Sequence record: GU595417
Direction: 5' to 3' (one strand)
DNA length: 43,984 nucleotides
Source: Escherichia phage UAB_Phi78
A program made the translations under genes and the position numbers. The notes under the pieces are model-generated. The model saw only the letters and a program-made list of their open reading frames with translations, was not told the origin of the DNA and did no database searches. This document shows, in pieces, positions 521 through 39,095 of this stretch (position 1 is the first letter of the stretch; each line of letters starts with the position of its first letter).

Positions 521-536
521 GTCCAACACGTTAGAC
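521..536 (-). repeat. dispersed 16-bp near-palindromic element (GTCTAACGTGTTGGAC family), inverted copy
   Basis: gtccaacacgttagac is the exact reverse complement of the core found at 6253, 6424 and elsewhere. Confidence 0.7.
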
Positions 537-3551: not shown

Positions 3552-6176
3552 ATGCAAGACTTACACGCTATCCAGCTTCAATTAGAAGAAGAGATGTTTA
3601 ATGGTGGCATTCGTCGGTTCGAAGCAGACCAACAACGCCAGATTGCAGCAGGTAGCGAGAGTGACACGGCATGGAACCGCCGCCTGTTGTCCGAACTTAT
3701 TGCACCTATGGCTGAAGGTATTCAGGCTTATAAAGAGGAGTACGAAGGCAAGAAAGGTCGTGCTCCTCGCGCATTGGCATTCTTACAGTGTGTAGAAAAT
3801 GAAGTTGCAGCATACATCACTATGAAGGTAGTTATGGATATGCTGAATACTGATGTTACTCTTCAGGCTATTGCAATGAGCGTAGCGGAGCGCATCGAAG
3901 ACCAAGTGCGTTTTAGCAAGTTAGAAGGTCACGCCGCTAAATACTTTGAGAAGGTTAAGAAATCACTCAAGGCTAGCCGTACTAAGTCCTATCGTCACGC
4001 GCACAACGTAGCTGTAGTGGCTGAAAAGTCAGTAGCAGAAAAAGACGCTGACTTTGACCGTTGGGAGGCATGGCCCAAAGAGGCTCAATTGCAAATTGGT
4101 ACTACCTTGCTTGAAATCTTAGAGGGCAGCGTATTCTATAACGGTGAACCTGTATTTATGCGTGCTATGCGCACTTATGGCGGCAAGACTATTTACTACT
4201 TACAGACTTCTGAAAGTGTAGGTCAGTGGATTAGCGCGTTCAAAGAGCACGTAGCGCAATTAAGCCCAGCTTATGCTCCTTGCGTAGTCCCTCCTCGTCC
4301 TTGGAAAACCCCATTCAACGGTGGATTCCATACTGAGAAGGTAGCTAGTCGTATTCGCCTTGTAAAAGGCAACCGCGAACATGTGCGCAAGTTAACTCAA
4401 AAGCAGATGCCAAAGGTTTATAAGGCTATCAATGCCCTACAGAATACGCAATGGCAAATCAACAAGGACGTATTAGCAGTTATTGAGGAAGTGATTCGCT
4501 TAGACCTCGGTTATGGTGTGCCGTCCTTCAAGCCCCTGATTGACAAGGAGAACAAGCCAGCTAACCCTGTGCCTGTTGAATTCCAGCACCTGCGCGGTCG
4601 TGAACTGAAAGAAATGCTCTCCCCTGAGCAGTGGCAACAATTTATCAACTGGAAAGGTGAGTGTGCCCGCCTGTATACCGCAGAAACTAAGCGCGGTTCA
4701 AAGTCCGCCGCCGTTGTTCGCATGGTAGGGCAGGCCCGTAAATATAGCACCTTTGAATCCATTTACTTCGTGTACGCAATGGACAGCCGTTCCCGTGTAT
4801 ACGCGCAGTCTAGCACGCTCTCTCCGCAGTCTAACGACTTAGGCAAGGCATTACTCCGCTTTACCGAAGGACGCCCTGTAGACAGCGTAGAGGCGCTTAA
4901 ATGGTTCTGCGTGAATGGCGCTAACCTTTGGGGGTGGGACAAGAAAATTTTTGATGTACGCGTGTCTAACGTGTTGGACGAAGAGTTCCAGGATATGTGC
5001 CGCGACATCGCCGCAGACCCTCTCACGTTCACTCAATGGGCCAAAGCGGACGCGCCTTATGAATTCCTCGCATGGTGCTTTGAGTACGCTCAATACCTTG
5101 ACTTAGTAGAGGAAGGAAGGGCCGACGAGTTCCGCACACACCTGCCAGTACATCAGGACGGTTCCTGCTCCGGTATTCAGCACTATAGCGCTATGCTTCG
5201 CGATGAAGTAGGGGCCAAGGCTGTTAACCTGAAACCGTCCGATACGCCGCAGGATATTTACGGGGCGGTAGCGCAGGTTGTTATCAAGAAGAATGCGCTA
5301 TACATGGATGCAGACGATGCAACTACGTTTACTTCTGGTAGCGTAACACTGTCCGGTGCAGAACTGCGAGCAATGGCTAGCGCATGGGATAGCATTGGTA
5401 TTACCCGCAGCTTAACCAAAAAGCCAGTGATGACCTTGCCTTATGGTTCTACTCGCTTAACTTGCCGTGAATCTGTGATTGACTACATCGTAGACTTAGA
5501 GGAGAAAGAGGCGCAGAAGGCAGTAGCAGAAGGGCGGACGGCAAACAAGGTTCATCCGTTTGAAGACGACCGTCAAGACTACCTGACTCCGGGCGCAGCA
5601 TATAACTACATGACGGCATTAATCTGGCCTTCTATTTCTGAGGTAGTTAAGGCACCAATTGTAGCGATGAAGATGATACGCCAGCTTGCACGCTTTGCAG
5701 CGAAACGCAATGAAGGGCTGATGTACACCCTGCCTACTGGCTTCATCTTAGAACAGAAGATTATGGCAACCGAGATGTTACGTGTGCGTACCTGCCTGAT
5801 GGGTGATATCAAGATGTCGCTTCAGGTTGAAACGGATATAGTAGATGAAGCTGCTATGATGGGCGCAGCAGCACCTAACTTCGTACACGGTCATGATGCA
5901 AGTCACCTTATCCTTACCGTATGTGAATTGGTAGACAAAGGGGTAACTAGTATCGCGGTAATCCACGACTCTTTCGGCACTCATGCCGACAACACTCTCA
6001 CTCTTAGAGTGGCACTTAAAGGGCAGATGGTTGCAATGTATAGTGAAGGCCATGCACTTCAGAAATTACTGGACGAGCACGAAGATCGTTGGATGGTTGA
6101 TACTGGCATCGAAGTGCCTGAGCAAGGGGAGTTTGACCTTAACGAAATCATGGAATCTGAATACGTGTTTGCCTAA
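3552..6176 (+). CDS. single-subunit DNA-directed RNA polymerase (T7/SP6 type)
   Basis: 874 aa; T7-RNAP-like motifs [19 protein letters not shown] and HDSFGTH and a C-terminal ...YVFA end; 874 aa matches the known length of SP6 RNAP. Confidence 0.97.
4964..4979 (+). repeat. 16-bp near-palindromic element embedded in the RNAP coding sequence
   Basis: gtctaacgtgttggac, translated in frame as SNVLD. Confidence 0.7.
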
Positions 6177-6194
6177 TAGATTAATAAACATACA

Positions 6195-6223
6195 GGTCAG
6201 CCTTCGGGCTGGCCTTTTCTTTC
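6195..6223 (+). terminator. intrinsic terminator after the RNAP gene
   Basis: 8-bp GC-rich stem (ggtcagcc / ggctggcc) with a UUCG tetraloop, followed by ttttctttc. Confidence 0.7.
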
Positions 6224-6252
6224 ACCTACTACTTGTAACATTTCATTAACAA

Positions 6253-6268
6253 GTCTAACGTGTTGGAC
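6253..6268 (+). repeat. 16-bp near-palindromic element
   Basis: gtctaacgtgttggac, 10 bp upstream of a promoter-like sequence. Confidence 0.7.
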
Positions 6269-6277
6269 ACGATGCGG

Positions 6278-6298
6278 ATTTAAGGGACACTCTAGGAC
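6278..6298 (+). promoter_or_regulatory. degenerate SP6-type promoter-like sequence
   Basis: atttaagggacactctaggac against the consensus atttaggtgacactatagaag. Confidence 0.35.
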
Positions 6299-6423
6299 TA
6301 ACCGTCGGAGACGGAAAGTAATAGGTAGTAATAGGAAGTAGTAGGTAAGTAAGGTAACTATAGGTTACTTAGGTTACTTCTTCCTATTACCTCCTTCTTA
6401 ATAGGGAGGGCAGACACTAGGTT

Positions 6424-6439
6424 GTCTAACGTGTTGGAC
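6424..6439 (+). repeat. 16-bp near-palindromic element
   Basis: gtctaacgtgttggac, 8 bp upstream of the promoter at 6447. Confidence 0.7.
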
Positions 6440-6446
6440 AGAACCT

Positions 6447-6467
6447 ATTTACGTGACACTATTGAAC
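6447..6467 (+). promoter_or_regulatory. SP6-type phage promoter (variant)
   Basis: atttacgtgacactattgaac; close to consensus, upstream of the HNH and primase genes. Confidence 0.55.
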
Positions 6468-6492
6468 AAGATTAAACTTTCAAGGAGGTAAC

Positions 6493-6903
6493 ATGCGTAA
6501 ATCATTAGCTCAAATGGTAGAGCAAGCAGGTTATACTATACATGCAGACGGTACTATCACAGGTAAGCGCGGAAATATCTTGAAGCCTTGGCTTCAGACT
6601 TCCGGCTATCAGGTTGTGAACATTGTGTTCAAGAAGGGAACAAGAACCACAACACTTGTGCATCGTATTATCGCAAGTAAATACTGCCCATGCTCAGATC
6701 AACTAGCTAATGATGTAAACCACAAGGACGGAGACAAGACCAATAACGTCTCCTCTAATCTGGAATGGATTACACGCAGACAGAACCGCAACCACTACCT
6801 TGGGTTTGAAGATTACATGACACTTACGGCAAACGATGCCCGTAGAAAGAACAATGAGCGTACTATCGCTCGTCGTAAATTACTTAAACAACTTAATAAG
6901 TGA
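6493..6903 (+). CDS. HNH homing endonuclease
   Basis: AAGGAGGT RBS; HNH-family motif VNHKDGDKTNN...NLEWIT; free-standing between the RNAP and primase genes. Confidence 0.8.
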   Translation: MRKSLAQMVEQAGYTIHADGTITGKRGNILKPWLQTSGYQVVNIVFKKGTRTTTLVHRIIASKYCPCSDQLANDVNHKDGDKTNNVSSNLEWITRRQNRNHYLGFEDYMTLTANDARRKNNERTIARRKLLKQLNK

Positions 6904-6913
6904 GGAATAAATC

Positions 6914-7039
6914 ATGCGTACCAACTTCGAGAAAATCCGTAAAGCTAACCGTGACTTTGACATGGAAGTTAAGGGGAAGAAGTTGAACAAAGTCAAGCGC
7001 GACCGTTCTGCTAAACGTGCGTGGATGGAGGCTGCATAA
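6914..7039 (+). CDS. hypothetical small basic protein (41 aa)
   Basis: ATG with GAGGAATAA RBS; Lys/Arg-rich; below the track cutoff. Confidence 0.35.
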   Translation: MRTNFEKIRKANRDFDMEVKGKKLNKVKRDRSAKRAWMEAA

Positions 7040-7040
7040 C

Positions 7041-9020
7041 ATGGCGATTGTGAACAACATTCCTTGCCCTGAGTGCCAACGCAACGGACATGATAAATCG
7101 GGCAATCACCTCATGATATTTGAGGATGGCGCTGGTTACTGTAACCGTGGTCACTTCCATAATAGTGGTCGGCCCTACTACCACAAACCCGAAGGTGGCA
7201 TAGAAATCACTGAGCTTCCTATTACTGGCAACATTAAGTATACACCTTCACAGTTCCGTGAACTTGAAAAGGAAGGGAAGATAAGCGACCCTAAGCTGCG
7301 CGCCATTGCACTTGGCGGTATGCGTATGAAAGATCGTTGGGAGGTGATGAATGACGAAGAAAGGGCGGAGCAAGAAGCAGAATGGCAGCTTGACGTTGAG
7401 TGGTTCCTTGAACTTAAAAGGAAGAACCTTGTATCACGACACATTCGCGGAGACATTTGCGCCCTCTATGATGTCCGAGTCGGTCATGATGGAGAAGGCA
7501 AGGTTAACAGGCATTACTACCCTCGCTTCGAAGGTGGCAAACTTGTAGGCGCTAAGTGCCGGACGCTACCTAAAGACTTTAAGTTTGGACACCTAGGTAA
7601 ATTGTTCGGCAACCAAGACATGTTCGGCATGAACACAATGTCTAACGTGTTGGACAAGGGACGCCGTAAAGATACCCTGCTCATAGTAGGTGGTGAACTG
7701 GATGCCTTGGCCGCACAACAGATGCTTCTGGATTCTGCCAAAGGCACGAAGTGGGAAGGGCAACCCTATCATGTGTGGTCTATCAACAAGGGCGAGGCTT
7801 GCCTTGAAGAGATCGTGCAGAACCGTGAGCACATCTCACAATTCAAGAAGATTATGTGGGGCTTCGACGGCGATGAGGTAGGGCAGAAGCTGAACCAACA
7901 AGCGGCCCGCCTATTCCACGGTAAGTCTTATATCCTTGAGTACCCTGCTGGCTGCAAGGACGCTAACAAGGCGCTTATGGCTGGCAAATCTAAGGAGTTC
8001 GTCGATGCATGGTTCAATGCCAAGTCGTCAGATGAGGTCTTCGGTAGCCAGATTAAATCCATCGCATCTCAAAGGGATAAGCTGAAGGCTGCACGACCGG
8101 AACCGGGATTGTCTTGGCCTTGGCCTAAGCTGAACAAGATAACCCTTGGCATCCGTAAGCATCAGCTAATCATCGTCGGCGCTGGTTCTGGTGTAGGTAA
8201 GACGGAGTTCCTCCGCGAAGTAGTGAAGCATCTCATTGAAGAACACGGTGAATCTGTCGGTATTATCTCTACGGAAGACCCGATGGTTAAGGTCTCCCGC
8301 GCATTCATTGGTAAGTGGATAGATAAGCGTATTGAACTACCTCCAACCAATGACCCAAGGGAAGATGGCTACCGTGAGGTATTCGACTACACGGAGGAAG
8401 AGGCCAACGCTGCTATCGACTACGTTGCTGACACTGGTAAGCTGTTCGTGGCTGACCTTGAAGGTGACTATTCAATGGAGAAGGTAGAGCAGACTTGCCT
8501 TGAGTTCGAGGCAATGGGTATTTCCAACATCATCATTGATAACTTAACAGGAATTAAATTAGATGAACGAAATTTTGGTGGTAAAGTTGGTGCGCTTGAT
8601 GAGTGCGTCAAAAGAATCGGCACTATCAAAGACCGACATCCGGTTACTATCTTCCTTGTCTCGCACCTTACACGTCCTTCGGGGCAACGTACCTCACACG
8701 AAGAAGGTGGCGAGGTTATCCTTTCTGACTTCCGAGGCTCAGGAGCTATCGGATTCTGGGCTTCTTACGCCTTGGGGATTGAGCGTAATACAAGGGCTGA
8801 AACGCTTGATGAAAGGACTACCACGTACATCTCATGTGTCAAAGACCGAGACCAAGGCATCTACACTGGCACTAAGGTGATGCTTAAAGGCGATGTTAGT
8901 ACAGGTAGATTGATGGAACCACAAGCACGTACTAGGTCATTTGATACAGGCGCTCCAAAAGAGCAAGCTGTACCTGATGAATTAGGTGACACTATAGAAG
9001 ATAACACACAGGAGTTTTAA
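7041..9020 (+). CDS. DNA primase/helicase (T7 gp4-like)
   Basis: N-terminal zinc ribbon CPECQ...CNRGHFH, Walker A GAGSGVGKT, and an acidic C-terminal tail ending ...DNTQEF. The track ORF begins at an upstream GTG (7017); ATG 7041 with GGAGG upstream is preferred. Confidence 0.93.
   Translation: MAIVNNIPCPECQRNGHDKSGNHLMIFEDGAGYCNRGHFHNSGRPYYHKPEGGIEITELPITGNIKYTPSQFRELEKEGKISDPKLRAIALGGMRMKDRWEVMNDEERAEQEAEWQLDVEWFLELKRKNLVSRHIRGDICALYDVRVGHDGEGKVNRHYYPRFEGGKLVGAKCRTLPKDFKFGHLGKLFGNQDMFGMNTMSNVLDKGRRKDTLLIVGGELDALAAQQMLLDSAKGTKWEGQPYHVWSINKGEACLEEIVQNREHISQFKKIMWGFDGDEVGQKLNQQAARLFHGKSYILEYPAGCKDANKALMAGKSKEFVDAWFNAKSSDEVFGSQIKSIASQRDKLKAARPEPGLSWPWPKLNKITLGIRKHQLIIVGAGSGVGKTEFLREVVKHLIEEHGESVGIISTEDPMVKVSRAFIGKWIDKRIELPPTNDPREDGYREVFDYTEEEANAAIDYVADTGKLFVADLEGDYSMEKVEQTCLEFEAMGISNIIIDNLTGIKLDERNFGGKVGALDECVKRIGTIKDRHPVTIFLVSHLTRPSGQRTSHEEGGEVILSDFRGSGAIGFWASYALGIERNTRAETLDERTTTYISCVKDRDQGIYTGTKVMLKGDVSTGRLMEPQARTRSFDTGAPKEQAVPDELGDTIEDNTQEF
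7640..7655 (+). repeat. 16-bp near-palindromic element embedded in the primase coding sequence
   Basis: gtctaacgtgttggac, again translated as SNVLD. Confidence 0.7.
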
Positions 9021-9121: not shown

Positions 9122-9137
9122 GTCCAACATGTTGGAC
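9122..9137. repeat. 16-bp element, perfect-palindrome variant
   Basis: gtccaacatgttggac is its own reverse complement. Confidence 0.7.
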
Positions 9138-10079: not shown

Positions 10080-10095
10080 GTCTAACATGTTGGAC
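10080..10095 (+). repeat. 16-bp near-palindromic element
   Basis: gtctaacatgttggac. Confidence 0.7.
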
Positions 10096-13070: not shown

Positions 13071-13099
13071 GTTAGATTCACCTAAATTCTTCTTACTTG

Positions 13100-13120
13100 A
13101 TTTAGGTGACACTATAGAAG
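13100..13120 (+). promoter_or_regulatory. SP6-type phage promoter (consensus)
   Basis: Exact atttaggtgacactatagaag. Confidence 0.9.
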
Positions 13121-13184
13121 GACAGCCAAGGTAATCTAGGTTATTAAGGCAGTATAGGTAATTAGGTAATATAGGAGAATAAAT

Positions 13185-14687: not shown

Positions 14688-14703
14688 GTCTAACGCGTTG
14701 GAC
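14688..14703 (+). repeat. 16-bp near-palindromic element
   Basis: gtctaacgcgttggac, 16 bp upstream of the promoter at 14720. Confidence 0.7.
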
Positions 14704-14719
14704 AAAATGGTATCCTCTT

Positions 14720-14740
14720 ATTTAGGGGACACTATAGAAG
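14720..14740 (+). promoter_or_regulatory. SP6-type phage promoter (one mismatch)
   Basis: atttaggggacactatagaag. Confidence 0.85.
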
Positions 14741-31458: not shown

Positions 31459-31474
31459 GTCTAACACGTTGGAC
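31459..31474 (+). repeat. 16-bp near-palindromic element
   Basis: gtctaacacgttggac in the 66-bp gap between the two large internal virion protein genes. Confidence 0.7.
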
Positions 31475-36769: not shown

Positions 36770-38667
36770 TGGCTAGAGCAAGGGAGTCACAAGCTGAAGC
36801 CCTTGCCCGTTGGGAAGCCCTGCATGAGTTACAGCAAACTTTTCCGTACACTGTAGCAGGGTTACTCTCATTTGCTCAGGTTGTAATTAATACTTTAATC
36901 ACTGGCAACCCAGACCTGAACCGGGTACAAGCGGATATTCTGAAATTCCTCTTTGGAGGGAACAAATACCGGATGGTAGAGGCACAGCGTGGTCAGGCTA
37001 AGACAACCATTGCAGCTATCTACGCTGCGTTCCGTATCATCCACGAGCCACATAAACGTATCATGATTGTGTCTCAGACAGCGAAGCGAGCAGAAGAAAT
37101 CGCCGGGTGGGTTATCAAAATATTCCGTGGTCTGGACTTCTTGGAGTTCATGTTGCCTGATATCTACGCAGGTGACAAGGCTAGTATAAAAGGCTTTGAA
37201 ATCCACTACACATTGCGTGGTAGCGACAAGTCTCCATCCGTTGCTTGCTACTCTATTGAAGCAGGTATGCAGGGTGCGCGTGCAGATATCATCTTGGCGG
37301 ATGACGTAGAGTCGTTGCAGAACTCTCGTACTGCCGCAGGTCGTGCTCTCTTAGAAGACCTTACCAAGGAATTTGAATCAATCAACCAGTTCGGTGATAT
37401 CATCTACTTGGGGACACCTCAAAGCGTAAACTCCATATACAACAACCTCCCGGCACGTGGTTATCAGATTCGCATCTGGCCCGGTCGCTATCCTACACTA
37501 GAGCAGGAGGCTTGCTATGGAGACTTCCTAGCGCCGATGATTCGTCAGGATATGATTGATGACCCAAGCCTACGCTCCGGCTACGGCATCGACGGTACAC
37601 AAGGCGCACCGACCTGTCCTGAAATGTACGATGACGAGAAGCTCATTGAGAAGGAAATCTCTCAGGGTACAGCTAAGTTCCAGTTGCAGTTCATGCTGAA
37701 CACACGTTTGATGGATGCCGACCGCTATCCTCTTCGTCTTAATCAGCTTATCTTGATGAGCTTTGGTACTGACGTAGTGCCGGAGATGCCGACTTGGAGT
37801 AACGACTCGGTAAACCTTATCAGCGACGCGCCGCGCTTCGGGAACAAGCCCACAGACTACCTGTATCGGCCTGTGCCGCGTCCGTATGAGTGGCGGCCTA
37901 TTCAGCGTCGGCTGATGTATATCGACCCGGCAGGTGGCGGTAAGAACGGCGACGAGACGGGCGTAGCCATTGTGTTCCTGCTGGGAACCTTTATCTACGT
38001 CTACAAAGTCTTCGGCGTACCGGGCGGATACTCCGAATCGGCCCTCAGTCGCATTGTGAGAGAGGCAAAGCAGGCGGAGGTAAAAGAGGTCTTCATAGAG
38101 AAGAACTTCGGTCATGGTGCGTTTGAGGCGGTAATTAAGCCATACTTCGAACGTGAGTGGCCTGCCGAGTTGAAAGAAGATTACGCCACTGGTCAGAAAG
38201 AGGCCCGCATCATTGAGACGCTGGAGCCGCTTATGTCCGCACACCGCATCATCTTCAATGCCGAGATGATCAAGCAGGATGTCGATAGCGTCCAGCACTA
38301 CCCTCTTGAGATTCGCATGAGCTACAGCCTGTTTGCTCAGATGTCGAACATAACCCTTGAGAAAGGATGCCTGCGGCACGATGACCGCTTAGACGCGCTG
38401 TATGGCGCTATACGGCAATTAACCTCTCAGATAGACTATGACGAGGCTAACCGGATAAATCGTCTCAGGGCGAAGGAGATGCGCGAATATCTGGAGATGA
38501 TGACCGACCCTCTACGTCGCCGGGAGTTCTTCACAGGACAAGACCACGGTTATCGAAAACAAGTGAACACGTCAGTGGCAATGCAGCGCCGAGTCTACGG
38601 AAATGCGCCGACGATGAGAATCAAGTCTCGAAATACTCTTTCTTCAAGAATATCAAGGACTTGGTAA
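36769..38667 (+). CDS. terminase large subunit
   Basis: 632 aa; AAGGAGG RBS; size and position equivalent to T7 gp19. The 269-aa antisense ORF inside it is discounted. Confidence 0.9.
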   Translation: MARARESQAEALARWEALHELQQTFPYTVAGLLSFAQVVINTLITGNPDLNRVQADILKFLFGGNKYRMVEAQRGQAKTTIAAIYAAFRIIHEPHKRIMIVSQTAKRAEEIAGWVIKIFRGLDFLEFMLPDIYAGDKASIKGFEIHYTLRGSDKSPSVACYSIEAGMQGARADIILADDVESLQNSRTAAGRALLEDLTKEFESINQFGDIIYLGTPQSVNSIYNNLPARGYQIRIWPGRYPTLEQEACYGDFLAPMIRQDMIDDPSLRSGYGIDGTQGAPTCPEMYDDEKLIEKEISQGTAKFQLQFMLNTRLMDADRYPLRLNQLILMSFGTDVVPEMPTWSNDSVNLISDAPRFGNKPTDYLYRPVPRPYEWRPIQRRLMYIDPAGGGKNGDETGVAIVFLLGTFIYVYKVFGVPGGYSESALSRIVREAKQAEVKEVFIEKNFGHGAFEAVIKPYFEREWPAELKEDYATGQKEARIIETLEPLMSAHRIIFNAEMIKQDVDSVQHYPLEIRMSYSLFAQMSNITLEKGCLRHDDRLDALYGAIRQLTSQIDYDEANRINRLRAKEMREYLEMMTDPLRRREFFTGQDHGYRKQVNTSVAMQRRVYGNAPTMRIKSRNTLSSRISRTW

Positions 38668-38686
38668 TTAGGGGACACTATAGGAG
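38666..38686 (+). promoter_or_regulatory. SP6-type phage promoter (variant)
   Basis: aattaggggacactataggag, directly after the terminase stop. Confidence 0.75.
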
Positions 38687-38757
38687 GAGGCCCAGAGAAT
38701 AAGAGAAATAACAAGGATAATATAGGTTAACCTAGGTTATATAGGTTACTATAGTAT

Positions 38758-38777
38758 GGGTGTACTCCTGTACACCC
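38758..38777 (+). other. perfect leader hairpin
   Basis: gggtgtac-tcct-gtacaccc: 8-bp perfect stem in the 5' leader downstream of the promoter at 38666. Confidence 0.6.
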
Positions 38778-38819
38778 TATTCCTTACTTCCTTACTATAC
38801 TTACATAATAGGAGAGAGA

Positions 38820-39095
38820 ATGTCTAATAGCTATAGTACACAACCTCTTACAGGTAAGTCTGCTCGTAAGCAGGTACAACCTGTGAGTGAAGCACTAATG
38901 CTTCCTGTAATCTCAAAAGAGGAGGCTAGTAAGAAAAGCAATGTTATTAATGATGCCACCAAATCAGGCAAACAGAAAGGAGCCATGGTGTGTCTTGACT
39001 CATCTGGTGCATTAAGTATTGCTATTGCAGTTGATGACAAAGAAGATTCTAATTGGCTGTCCGTTACAGCGGGCACTTCTATTACCCCAGCTTAA
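38820..39095 (+). CDS. hypothetical small protein, paralogue A (about 92 aa)
   Basis: ATG 38820 with AGGAGAGAGAA RBS; shares SGKQKGAM......G....IAIA with the next gene. Confidence 0.6.
   Translation: MSNSYSTQPLTGKSARKQVQPVSEALMLPVISKEEASKKSNVINDATKSGKQKGAMVCLDSSGALSIAIAVDDKEDSNWLSVTAGTSITPA

Follow-up and report, generated by a model that had tools for sequence, protein, structure and literature searches.

Where does DNA replication begin in the SP6-like phages, and does the non-coding DNA directly after the RNA polymerase (RNAP) gene serve as their primary origin? SP6 is the source of a widely used RNA polymerase, and SP6-like phages, among them K1-5, K1E and the Klebsiella and Salmonella phages that are candidates for therapy, are being engineered. 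The question is raised here by the sequence GU595417 (Escherichia phage UAB_Phi78), a stretch of 43,984 bases which is itself IMG/VR contig 2595698432_000001 and which, taken whole, we call the window. It is the complete genome of an SP6-like Salmonella phage, with 99.7% identity over the query to vB_SenAt-pSL2 (Zindervirus UAB78). Between the end of its RNAP gene (3552-6176, 874 amino acids) and the next open reading frame (ORF), which begins at 6493, lies an interval (6177-6492) that the original prediction took for a candidate primary replication origin, by analogy with T7. Among open-access papers we found none that maps the replication origin of an SP6-like phage and none that contains the motifs of the interval; the SP6 genome papers (Dobbins et al. 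2004; Scholl et al. 2004) lie outside that coverage, and part of our description of the interval may already be in those two papers.

The secure part of our answer is that the interval, by sequence and comparison, is the SP6-group counterpart of the phi1.1A/phi1.1B control region of T7: a terminator and dual middle-promoter region, with a structured leader on the transcript of the first promoter. All the elements that had been listed are in the sequence, at their stated positions or a few bases away. As had been predicted, it is a non-coding interval of about 300 bp, without any ORF of at least 20 amino acids within 6177-6492 apart from run-ons out of the RNAP gene, and it holds an intrinsic terminator followed by two promoters for the phage RNAP, phi1 and phi2 (Table 1). 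The product of the gene 1.1 homologue downstream aligns with T7 gp1.1 through the motif MR(T)NFEK...KLNK.KRDRS.KR.W, and the primase/helicase gene lies further downstream again. In T7, phi1.1A (5848) and phi1.1B (5923) lie between gene 1 and gene 1.1, and these two promoters are the T7 primary replication origins (PMC8373140). Because the RNAP gene, the two promoters and the gene 1.1 homologue share the T7 slot, the interval does more than resemble the primary origin region of T7: it corresponds to that region in position. The layout of tandem promoters after the RNAP gene is older than the split between the T7 and SP6 groups.

The two promoters had both been proposed, the first of them as a degenerate copy, and phi1 does carry five mismatches to the SP6 consensus where phi2 carries three. 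A weight matrix built from eight further promoters in this genome and applied to 87,924 positions ranked phi2 ninth and phi1 tenth; below them came 2305 (20.7 bits) and 9769 (16.6 bits), after which the scores fell to 9.6 bits. Moreover, phi1 and phi2 both switch with the promoter type of the lineage in K1-5, the Proteus phages, IMG/VR contig 861, Klebsiella phage K13PH07C1L and a further locus (L020), the types being GGTGACACTATAG in SP6, CCGGACA(C/G)TATAG in K1-5, GTGTTGC(A/C)CTATAG in one IMG/VR contig and AGACCA(C/G)TATAG in the Proteus phages. Since both promoters take each lineage's promoter type, we regard the "degenerate" phi1 as a genuine promoter. The second promoter is conserved in Zindervirus and Ulipvirus, its unusual T at -1 included. 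No sigma-70 promoter was found in 5500-7200. A promoter-like sequence, AATTATGTGACACTATAAGAGGC, stands at 2305-2327 (rank 11 in the same scoring). Both the gene at 2602 and the RNAP gene lie downstream of it, and it could serve as a weak phage promoter in the early region.

We compared about 25 relatives from GenBank and IMG/VR, belonging to Zindervirus, Vectrevirus (K1-5, K1E), Ulipvirus (Klebsiella) and Acadevirus (Proteus) or to unclassified contigs. All have the same order of elements: terminator, conserved block, palindrome, phi1, a hairpin CCGTC-GGA-GACGG (hairpin 1), a purine-rich array, a pyrimidine arm, palindrome, phi2 and gene 1.1 homologue; the exceptions are that the conserved block is missing in the Proteus phages and in L020, and that the second palindrome is present in most, not all. 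This layout is kept in at least four genera. The terminator, which is predicted to end the early transcription of the RNAP gene by the host RNA polymerase, keeps its hairpin and T-run in all relatives, with stem sequences that are lineage-specific. When the window is compared with K1-5, identity is 76% in the interval and 47% at the third codon positions of the adjacent RNAP gene; for the window and SP6 the corresponding values are 94% and 81%. Selection acts on the layout of the interval. Scanning IMG/VR with the sequence of hairpin 1 gave 100 matches, 14 of which lie in a palindrome-promoter context (13 with an upstream TATAG, together with the window's own contig), and we take the other 86 as chance because they are without that context and have few downstream AGG units. 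The idea that the interval as a whole is just a spacer in which motifs have come together by chance, with no function past one promoter, was considered solely for the five departures of phi1 from the SP6 consensus; no support for it was found, and it is exceedingly improbable given that motif counts are far above the shuffled expectation, that the interval is much more conserved than synonymous sites and that its architecture is retained across genera.

Might this conserved control region also be an origin? For every phage promoter we took the least stable 60-bp duplex starting no more than 60 nucleotides (nt) from the start site, as judged by nearest-neighbour energies, and calibrated this test of instability on T7. 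The top four of the 17 T7 promoters were phiOL, which we take to be a secondary origin as well, phi1.1B, phi6.5 and phiOR. Both phi6.5 and phiOR are T7 secondary origins (PMC8373140). The top three of the 12 promoters in the window were those at 38666 (z 3.69) and 13100 (z 3.55) and phi1 (z 3.06), and in K1-5 the three equivalent promoters lead again (z 4.10, 3.99 and 3.51), with phi1 third of eight. By instability, the only criterion that passed the T7 control, the phi1 region is thus an origin-type site, one of three; the ranking cannot single out a primary origin because the T7 primary origin itself ranks second. By analogy with T7, we would give roughly even chances that the interval may be the primary replication origin, and somewhat better than even chances that it may have some origin activity.

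The two sister loci have repeats at a spacing of 8-10 bp, and their unit, TAGGT(A/T)A, is over-represented in the window (29 occurrences against 10.4 expected), clustering after phi1, 13100 and 38666. Either could be a secondary origin or an element of a leader. The upstream half of the promoter also occurs in inverted form, as TCACCTAAAT, at 13073-13087, 12 bp before the promoter at 13100; K1-5 does not have this copy.

Table 1. Coordinates of the elements of the interval, the sister loci and the neighbouring genes in the window.
Feature	Position	Strand	Description
Intrinsic terminator	6194-6224	+	9-bp stem 6194-6215 with 6 G-C pairs, loop TTCG, then TTTTCTTTC
Conserved block CCTAYTACYTGTAACATTTCATTAACA	6224-6252		Between terminator and palindrome 1; one copy in the window
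Palindrome 1 GTCTAACGTGTTGGAC	6253-6268	+	9 bp upstream of phi1
Phage-RNAP promoter phi1 ATTTAAGGGACACTCTAGGACTA	6278-6300	+	Predicted start G6295
Hairpin 1 CCGTC-GGA-GACGG	6302-6314	+	+8 to +20 of the phi1 transcript; 5-bp stem
Phased array	6315-6379	+	Six (T/A)AGG(T/A)A units; AGG at 6323, 6333, 6343, 6352, 6362, 6371
G-free pyrimidine arm	6375-6399	+	Complementary to the array; predicted long hairpin 6328-6390
Small hairpin CCTCCTTCTTAATAGGGAGG and conserved GGGCAGAC	6390-6415	+	GGGCAGAC holds GCA 6410-6412
Palindrome 2	6424-6439	+	Same sequence as palindrome 1; 7 bp upstream of phi2
Phage-RNAP promoter phi2 ATTTACGTGACACTATTGAACAA	6447-6469	+	Predicted start G6464
Palindrome copies in the window	521-536, 4964-4979, 6253-6268, 6424-6439, 7640-7655, 9122-9137, 10080-10095, 14688-14703, 31459-31474		
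Second locus	13100-13184	+	Consensus promoter, then TAGGT(A/T)A array; immediately follows the DNA polymerase gene; kept in K1-5
Third locus	38666-38840	+	Promoter, three TAGGTTA at 10-bp spacing, hairpin, G-free run; just after the terminase large-subunit gene; kept in K1-5
HNH endonuclease gene	6493-6903	+	Pfam HNH_3, E 4.5e-8; own ribosome-binding site; outside the conserved module
T7 gene 1.1 homologue	6914-7039	+	Pfam Phage_1_1, E 2.5e-12, above the curated cut-off; 41 amino acids

The stretch that would have to melt at phi1 is built of repeats. The longest C-free run of the genome (6313-6357) overlaps the array, in which AGTAATAGGT occurs three times at 10-bp spacing (6317-6346) and TAGGTTACT twice (6361-6378). 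The direct repeats had been described as parts of a long imperfect inverted repeat, and so they are: arms of 21 nt (6323-6343 and 6375-6395), 86% complementary, make up the longest local inverted repeat among the 43,984 bases. An AT-rich block had been placed at about 6300-6400, and this is present, with 67% A+T in 6315-6400 compared with 52.6% in the genome, but the enrichment is only moderate, the block ranking about fourth to ninth among the least stable duplex windows, depending on window size, and not forming the minimum. R-loop favourability (RNA:DNA minus DNA:DNA nearest-neighbour energy) places the phi1 array in the top 1.5% of windows here and in the top 0.2% in K1-5; it is not diagnostic, because the T7 primary origin is unremarkable by this measure (36th-67th percentile). 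We also considered the array units as promoter half-sites and rejected the idea, as K1-5 and the Proteus phages keep TAGG units despite having different promoters.

The pairing arms of this block may act in RNA, as may hairpin 1. In 13 distinct sequences, hairpin 1 has all its pairs (100%), and the third of them is G-C (8), A-U (3), C-G (1) or U-A (1), and its covariation score (0.241, compared with 0.054 in shuffles) was reached by none of 500 shuffles; lying near the start site, it would stand at the 5′ end of the RNA. The long hairpin has the form of an RNase III site, that is, an imperfect hairpin of about two helical turns within a phage transcript. A 131-nt segment containing it folds with -41.7 kcal/mol (z -2.4), and in 115-nt segments of the relatives a long hairpin forms between array and pyrimidine arm in each lineage (z -2.8 to -5.4). 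T7 RNA also folds a hairpin between phi1.1A and phi1.1B, presumably the R1.1 RNase III site. It is therefore possible, although we find it the less probable outcome, that the interval is a region of transcription and RNA processing only, in which the phi1 transcript is protected at its 5′ end by hairpin 1 and the long hairpin is a site of processing or stability equivalent to R1.1, while replication begins elsewhere, for example at the promoter and array at 13.1 kb. The strong hairpin found in nearly every lineage and the compensatory changes in hairpin 1 speak for this, as does the T7 hairpin in the same place; the T7 region is, however, both a processing site and the primary origin, so that the two roles are not mutually exclusive. 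Furthermore, RNAalifold gave no consensus pairs for the long hairpin on the cross-lineage alignment, because the pairing register shifts between lineages; Vibrio phage BD1 has retained the array but folds only a weak hairpin; and no T7-like family of long hairpins was found elsewhere in the genome. An Rfam search gave nothing above threshold, its sub-threshold matches being look-alikes of microRNA precursors only.

What is kept in the array is its phasing. The spacing is 9-10 bp, with 6-10 units in most lineages and three in the shortest (L020), while the bases between the AGGs vary; the ten units of Klebsiella phage K13PH07C1L are AGGTA. In Vibrio phage BD1, whose RNAP C-terminus is 49% identical, a palindrome and a promoter precede seven (A/T)AGGTAT units that reach the next start codon, and a distant Edwardsiella phage has an array of another unit, AGTAAGCT, in the same place. 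Such direct repeats, at least three at about helical spacing, are what an iteron-type origin would show, and it could be argued that the array units, alone or together with the palindromes, are bound by a sequence-specific phage or host protein which organises initiation or regulates the middle promoters, rather than forming a passive melting stretch. We consider this unlikely. DnaA boxes (TTATCCACA, with up to two mismatches), which an iteron-type origin would also have, were not found in 6177-6492. No candidate for an initiator or repressor turned up, though no search was aimed at one, and the proteins identified by Pfam near the interval are only the primase/helicase, the HNH endonuclease and the gp1.1 homologue. 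T7 origins are not known to need a sequence-specific initiator.

The palindromes bear on the same idea. The two near-palindromes that had been noticed in the interval are indeed there, as an identical 17-mer, GTCTAACGTGTTGGACA (containing GTCTAACGTGTTGGAC), at 6253 and 6424. They belong to a larger family, the degenerate 16-bp pattern GTCYAACRYGTTRGAC having nine matches in the window with 0.00 expected. The K1-5 version is GTCTCACATGTGAGAC, which occurs at seven sites, the position of palindrome 1 among them, and these mostly share their gene context with the copies of the window (two before phi1/phi2, one in the primase gene, one after it and one before the 14.6-kb promoter). The palindromes thereby shift in concert between lineages at orthologous positions, which suggests a co-evolving binding partner and favours recognition by a protein. 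Even as far away as Vibrio phage BD1 and Pseudomonas phage uligo, the terminator of the RNAP gene has a related palindrome behind it. In the window one copy precedes the promoter at 14720. Against such recognition, other copies are found within the RNAP and primase genes and far from any array, and the distance from palindrome to promoter varies from 2 to 16 bp. All asymmetric copies except one share the + strand orientation, and in seven of the eight, read on the + strand, position 4 is T or C against a constant G at position 13, which would suit an RNA hairpin equally; the copies at 9122, 10080 and 31459 lengthen into stems of about 14 bp with G-U pairs.

Between terminator and palindrome 1 stands a 27-bp block (6224-6252) that is nearly invariant in Zindervirus (SP6), Vectrevirus (K1-5) and Ulipvirus (Klebsiella). 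Its first 11 nt are complementary to the repeat unit at 6336-6346, no promoter match was found in it, and its place outside the phi1 transcript suggests a role at the level of DNA. It is conceivable, though improbable in our estimate, that the phased arrays after three promoters and the co-changing palindromes together form an undescribed system of protein-recognised cis-elements that marks and controls replication origins; this system could span the SP6-like phages and distant relatives among the phages of Vibrio, Edwardsiella and Pseudomonas. If this were true, T7-type origins in the SP6 group would be more than a promoter and meltable DNA.

A number of points weigh against the interval being the primary origin. 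All that we say of replication there is drawn by analogy. The promoters at 13.1 kb and 38.7 kb outscore phi1 for instability, and the lower stability of the 13.1-kb locus also fits a start of replication at that site and a purely RNA-processing interval. The palindromes are not origin-specific, because they form a dispersed, genome-wide family of nine copies. The inverted repeat may be an element that acts in RNA, since it takes the place of the inter-promoter hairpin of T7; likewise, both at 13.1 kb and in Vibrio phage BD1, the TAGGT(A/T)A array runs right up to a start codon, as would fit a role in messenger RNA leaders. Among the relatives compared, only this phage and pSL2, whose sequence is the same at this place, have a C at -3 of phi1. 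The T7 analogy itself holds for position, through the Phage_1_1 homologue and the phi1.1A/phi1.1B slot, but not for arrangement: the unstable block lies between the promoters here and after both in T7, and it has 67% A+T here compared with 71% in T7. The proposal of a candidate primary origin therefore keeps its T7-like position and its place among the three least stable promoters, while two loci score above it and its palindromes do not set it apart.

An origin elsewhere has also been suggested before. The one remark on the subject that our searches for an SP6 or K1-5 origin found is second-hand: according to PMC4837284, Dobbins et al. 2004 suggested that SP6 has its origin in or near the DNA polymerase gene, which counts further against the interval and in favour of its being an RNA-processing region. 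The detrended GC-skew minimum of the window, at 12.3 kb inside the DNA polymerase gene, agrees with that suggestion and a minimum of this kind was probably its basis. The cumulative skew rises monotonically, two-level fits explaining 2-6% of the variance, and the detrended minimum falls at 6.6 kb in K1-5, beside the counterpart of the interval, and in T7 at 9.5 kb. We regard GC skew as uninformative, both because the T7 control misses the known 5.9-kb origin by 3.6 kb and because the skew is dominated by the single direction of transcription; the argument for replication beginning at 13.1 kb is weakened by this failure and by the K1-5 minimum, which adjoins the interval.

By sequence and comparison, the terminator ends early transcription of the RNAP gene, after which phage RNAP reads the gene 1.1 homologue and the primase/helicase gene from phi1 and phi2. 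The phi1 transcript carries first the 5-bp hairpin that is under selection, then the C-free array of low stability and then its pyrimidine complement. If the interval also acts as an origin in the manner of T7, we propose that its parts could work together as follows. Phage RNAP starting from phi1 (and phi2) would melt the array, and the nascent RNA would be handed to the phage DNA polymerase as a primer for rightward synthesis; the displaced purine-rich strand could load the primase/helicase for leftward priming, possibly at GCA 6410. Tseng et al. 2000 reportedly found 5′-GCA-3′ to be the template site of the SP6 primase. Between the two start sites this triplet occurs once on the + strand (6410-6412) and not at all on the other, with about 3.5 expected per strand and 3.7 on the + strand; as a primase site the single GCA, inside GGGCAGAC, is suggestive only, and the motif is missing from the Klebsiella and Proteus versions of the interval. 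The promoters at 13.1 kb and 38.7 kb, with their like arrays, would be alternative or secondary origins.

Downstream of phi2, the HNH endonuclease gene sits before the gene 1.1 homologue. SP6 has no HNH gene, and its homology to the window stops just after phi2; Proteus phage PM93 has an HNH gene at the equivalent spot, and in BP12B such a gene directly follows the gene 1.1 homologue, so that the site looks like a hot spot for insertion. In SP6 (AY288927, gene 9; L001 3632-3829), the gene 1.1 homologue begins ahead of phi2, at 6271, in one annotation and at 6340 in another, where the product begins MRNFEK like T7 gp1.1 and has the same length of 42 amino acids as T7 gp1.1; the long version is probably a mis-called start. 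At the left end of the genome, a T-free run of 59 nt (106-164) is the longest run in the genome to be free of a single base, and tandem repeats follow at 251-345 (CTTAGTAACTAC in 4.5 copies and a 23-bp unit in 1.9). K1-5 has comparable arrays at 284-411, and these left-end arrays are reminiscent of the repeat arrays beside the T7 terminal repeat.

Three precisely bounded origin candidates, at 6.3 kb, 13.1 kb and 38.7 kb, come out of this work, along with a simple criterion of instability that places phi1.1B and the reported secondary origins first among the T7 promoters. If the interval were confirmed as an origin, this would be an expected extension of the T7 model to the SP6 group; the phased arrays and co-varying palindromes are the parts that could hold novelty.

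Compared with the T7 primary origin region, the interval has the same sequence of RNAP gene, two tandem rightward phage promoters and gene 1.1 homologue, with a hairpin between the promoters in both phages and an unstable duplex after a promoter (T7 phi1.1B z 4.2, phi1 z 3.1 here). It differs in that its block is made of phased AGG units which form an inverted repeat, in that two palindromes of a dispersed family bracket this block, where scanning of the equivalent T7 interval alone gave none, and in that an intrinsic terminator stands directly upstream, whereas the T7 terminator TE comes after gene 1.3. It resembles R1.1 of T7 in having an imperfect RNA hairpin between the pair of promoters behind the RNAP gene. 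The SP6-type hairpin exceeds that of R1.1 in length, consists of repeat units that give it a purine-rich arm and a pyrimidine-rich one, and has no sequence similarity to R1.1, any cleavage site in it being putative. The sister loci in turn resemble the T7 secondary origins, for in each a phage promoter is followed by an easily melted stretch, and the gene for the large terminase subunit immediately precedes the 38.7-kb locus, as it does phiOR in T7. The SP6-type loci, which are candidates from sequence, share the unit TAGGT(A/T)A and the T7 sites do not; nonetheless, the criterion of instability groups such sites together in all three genomes.

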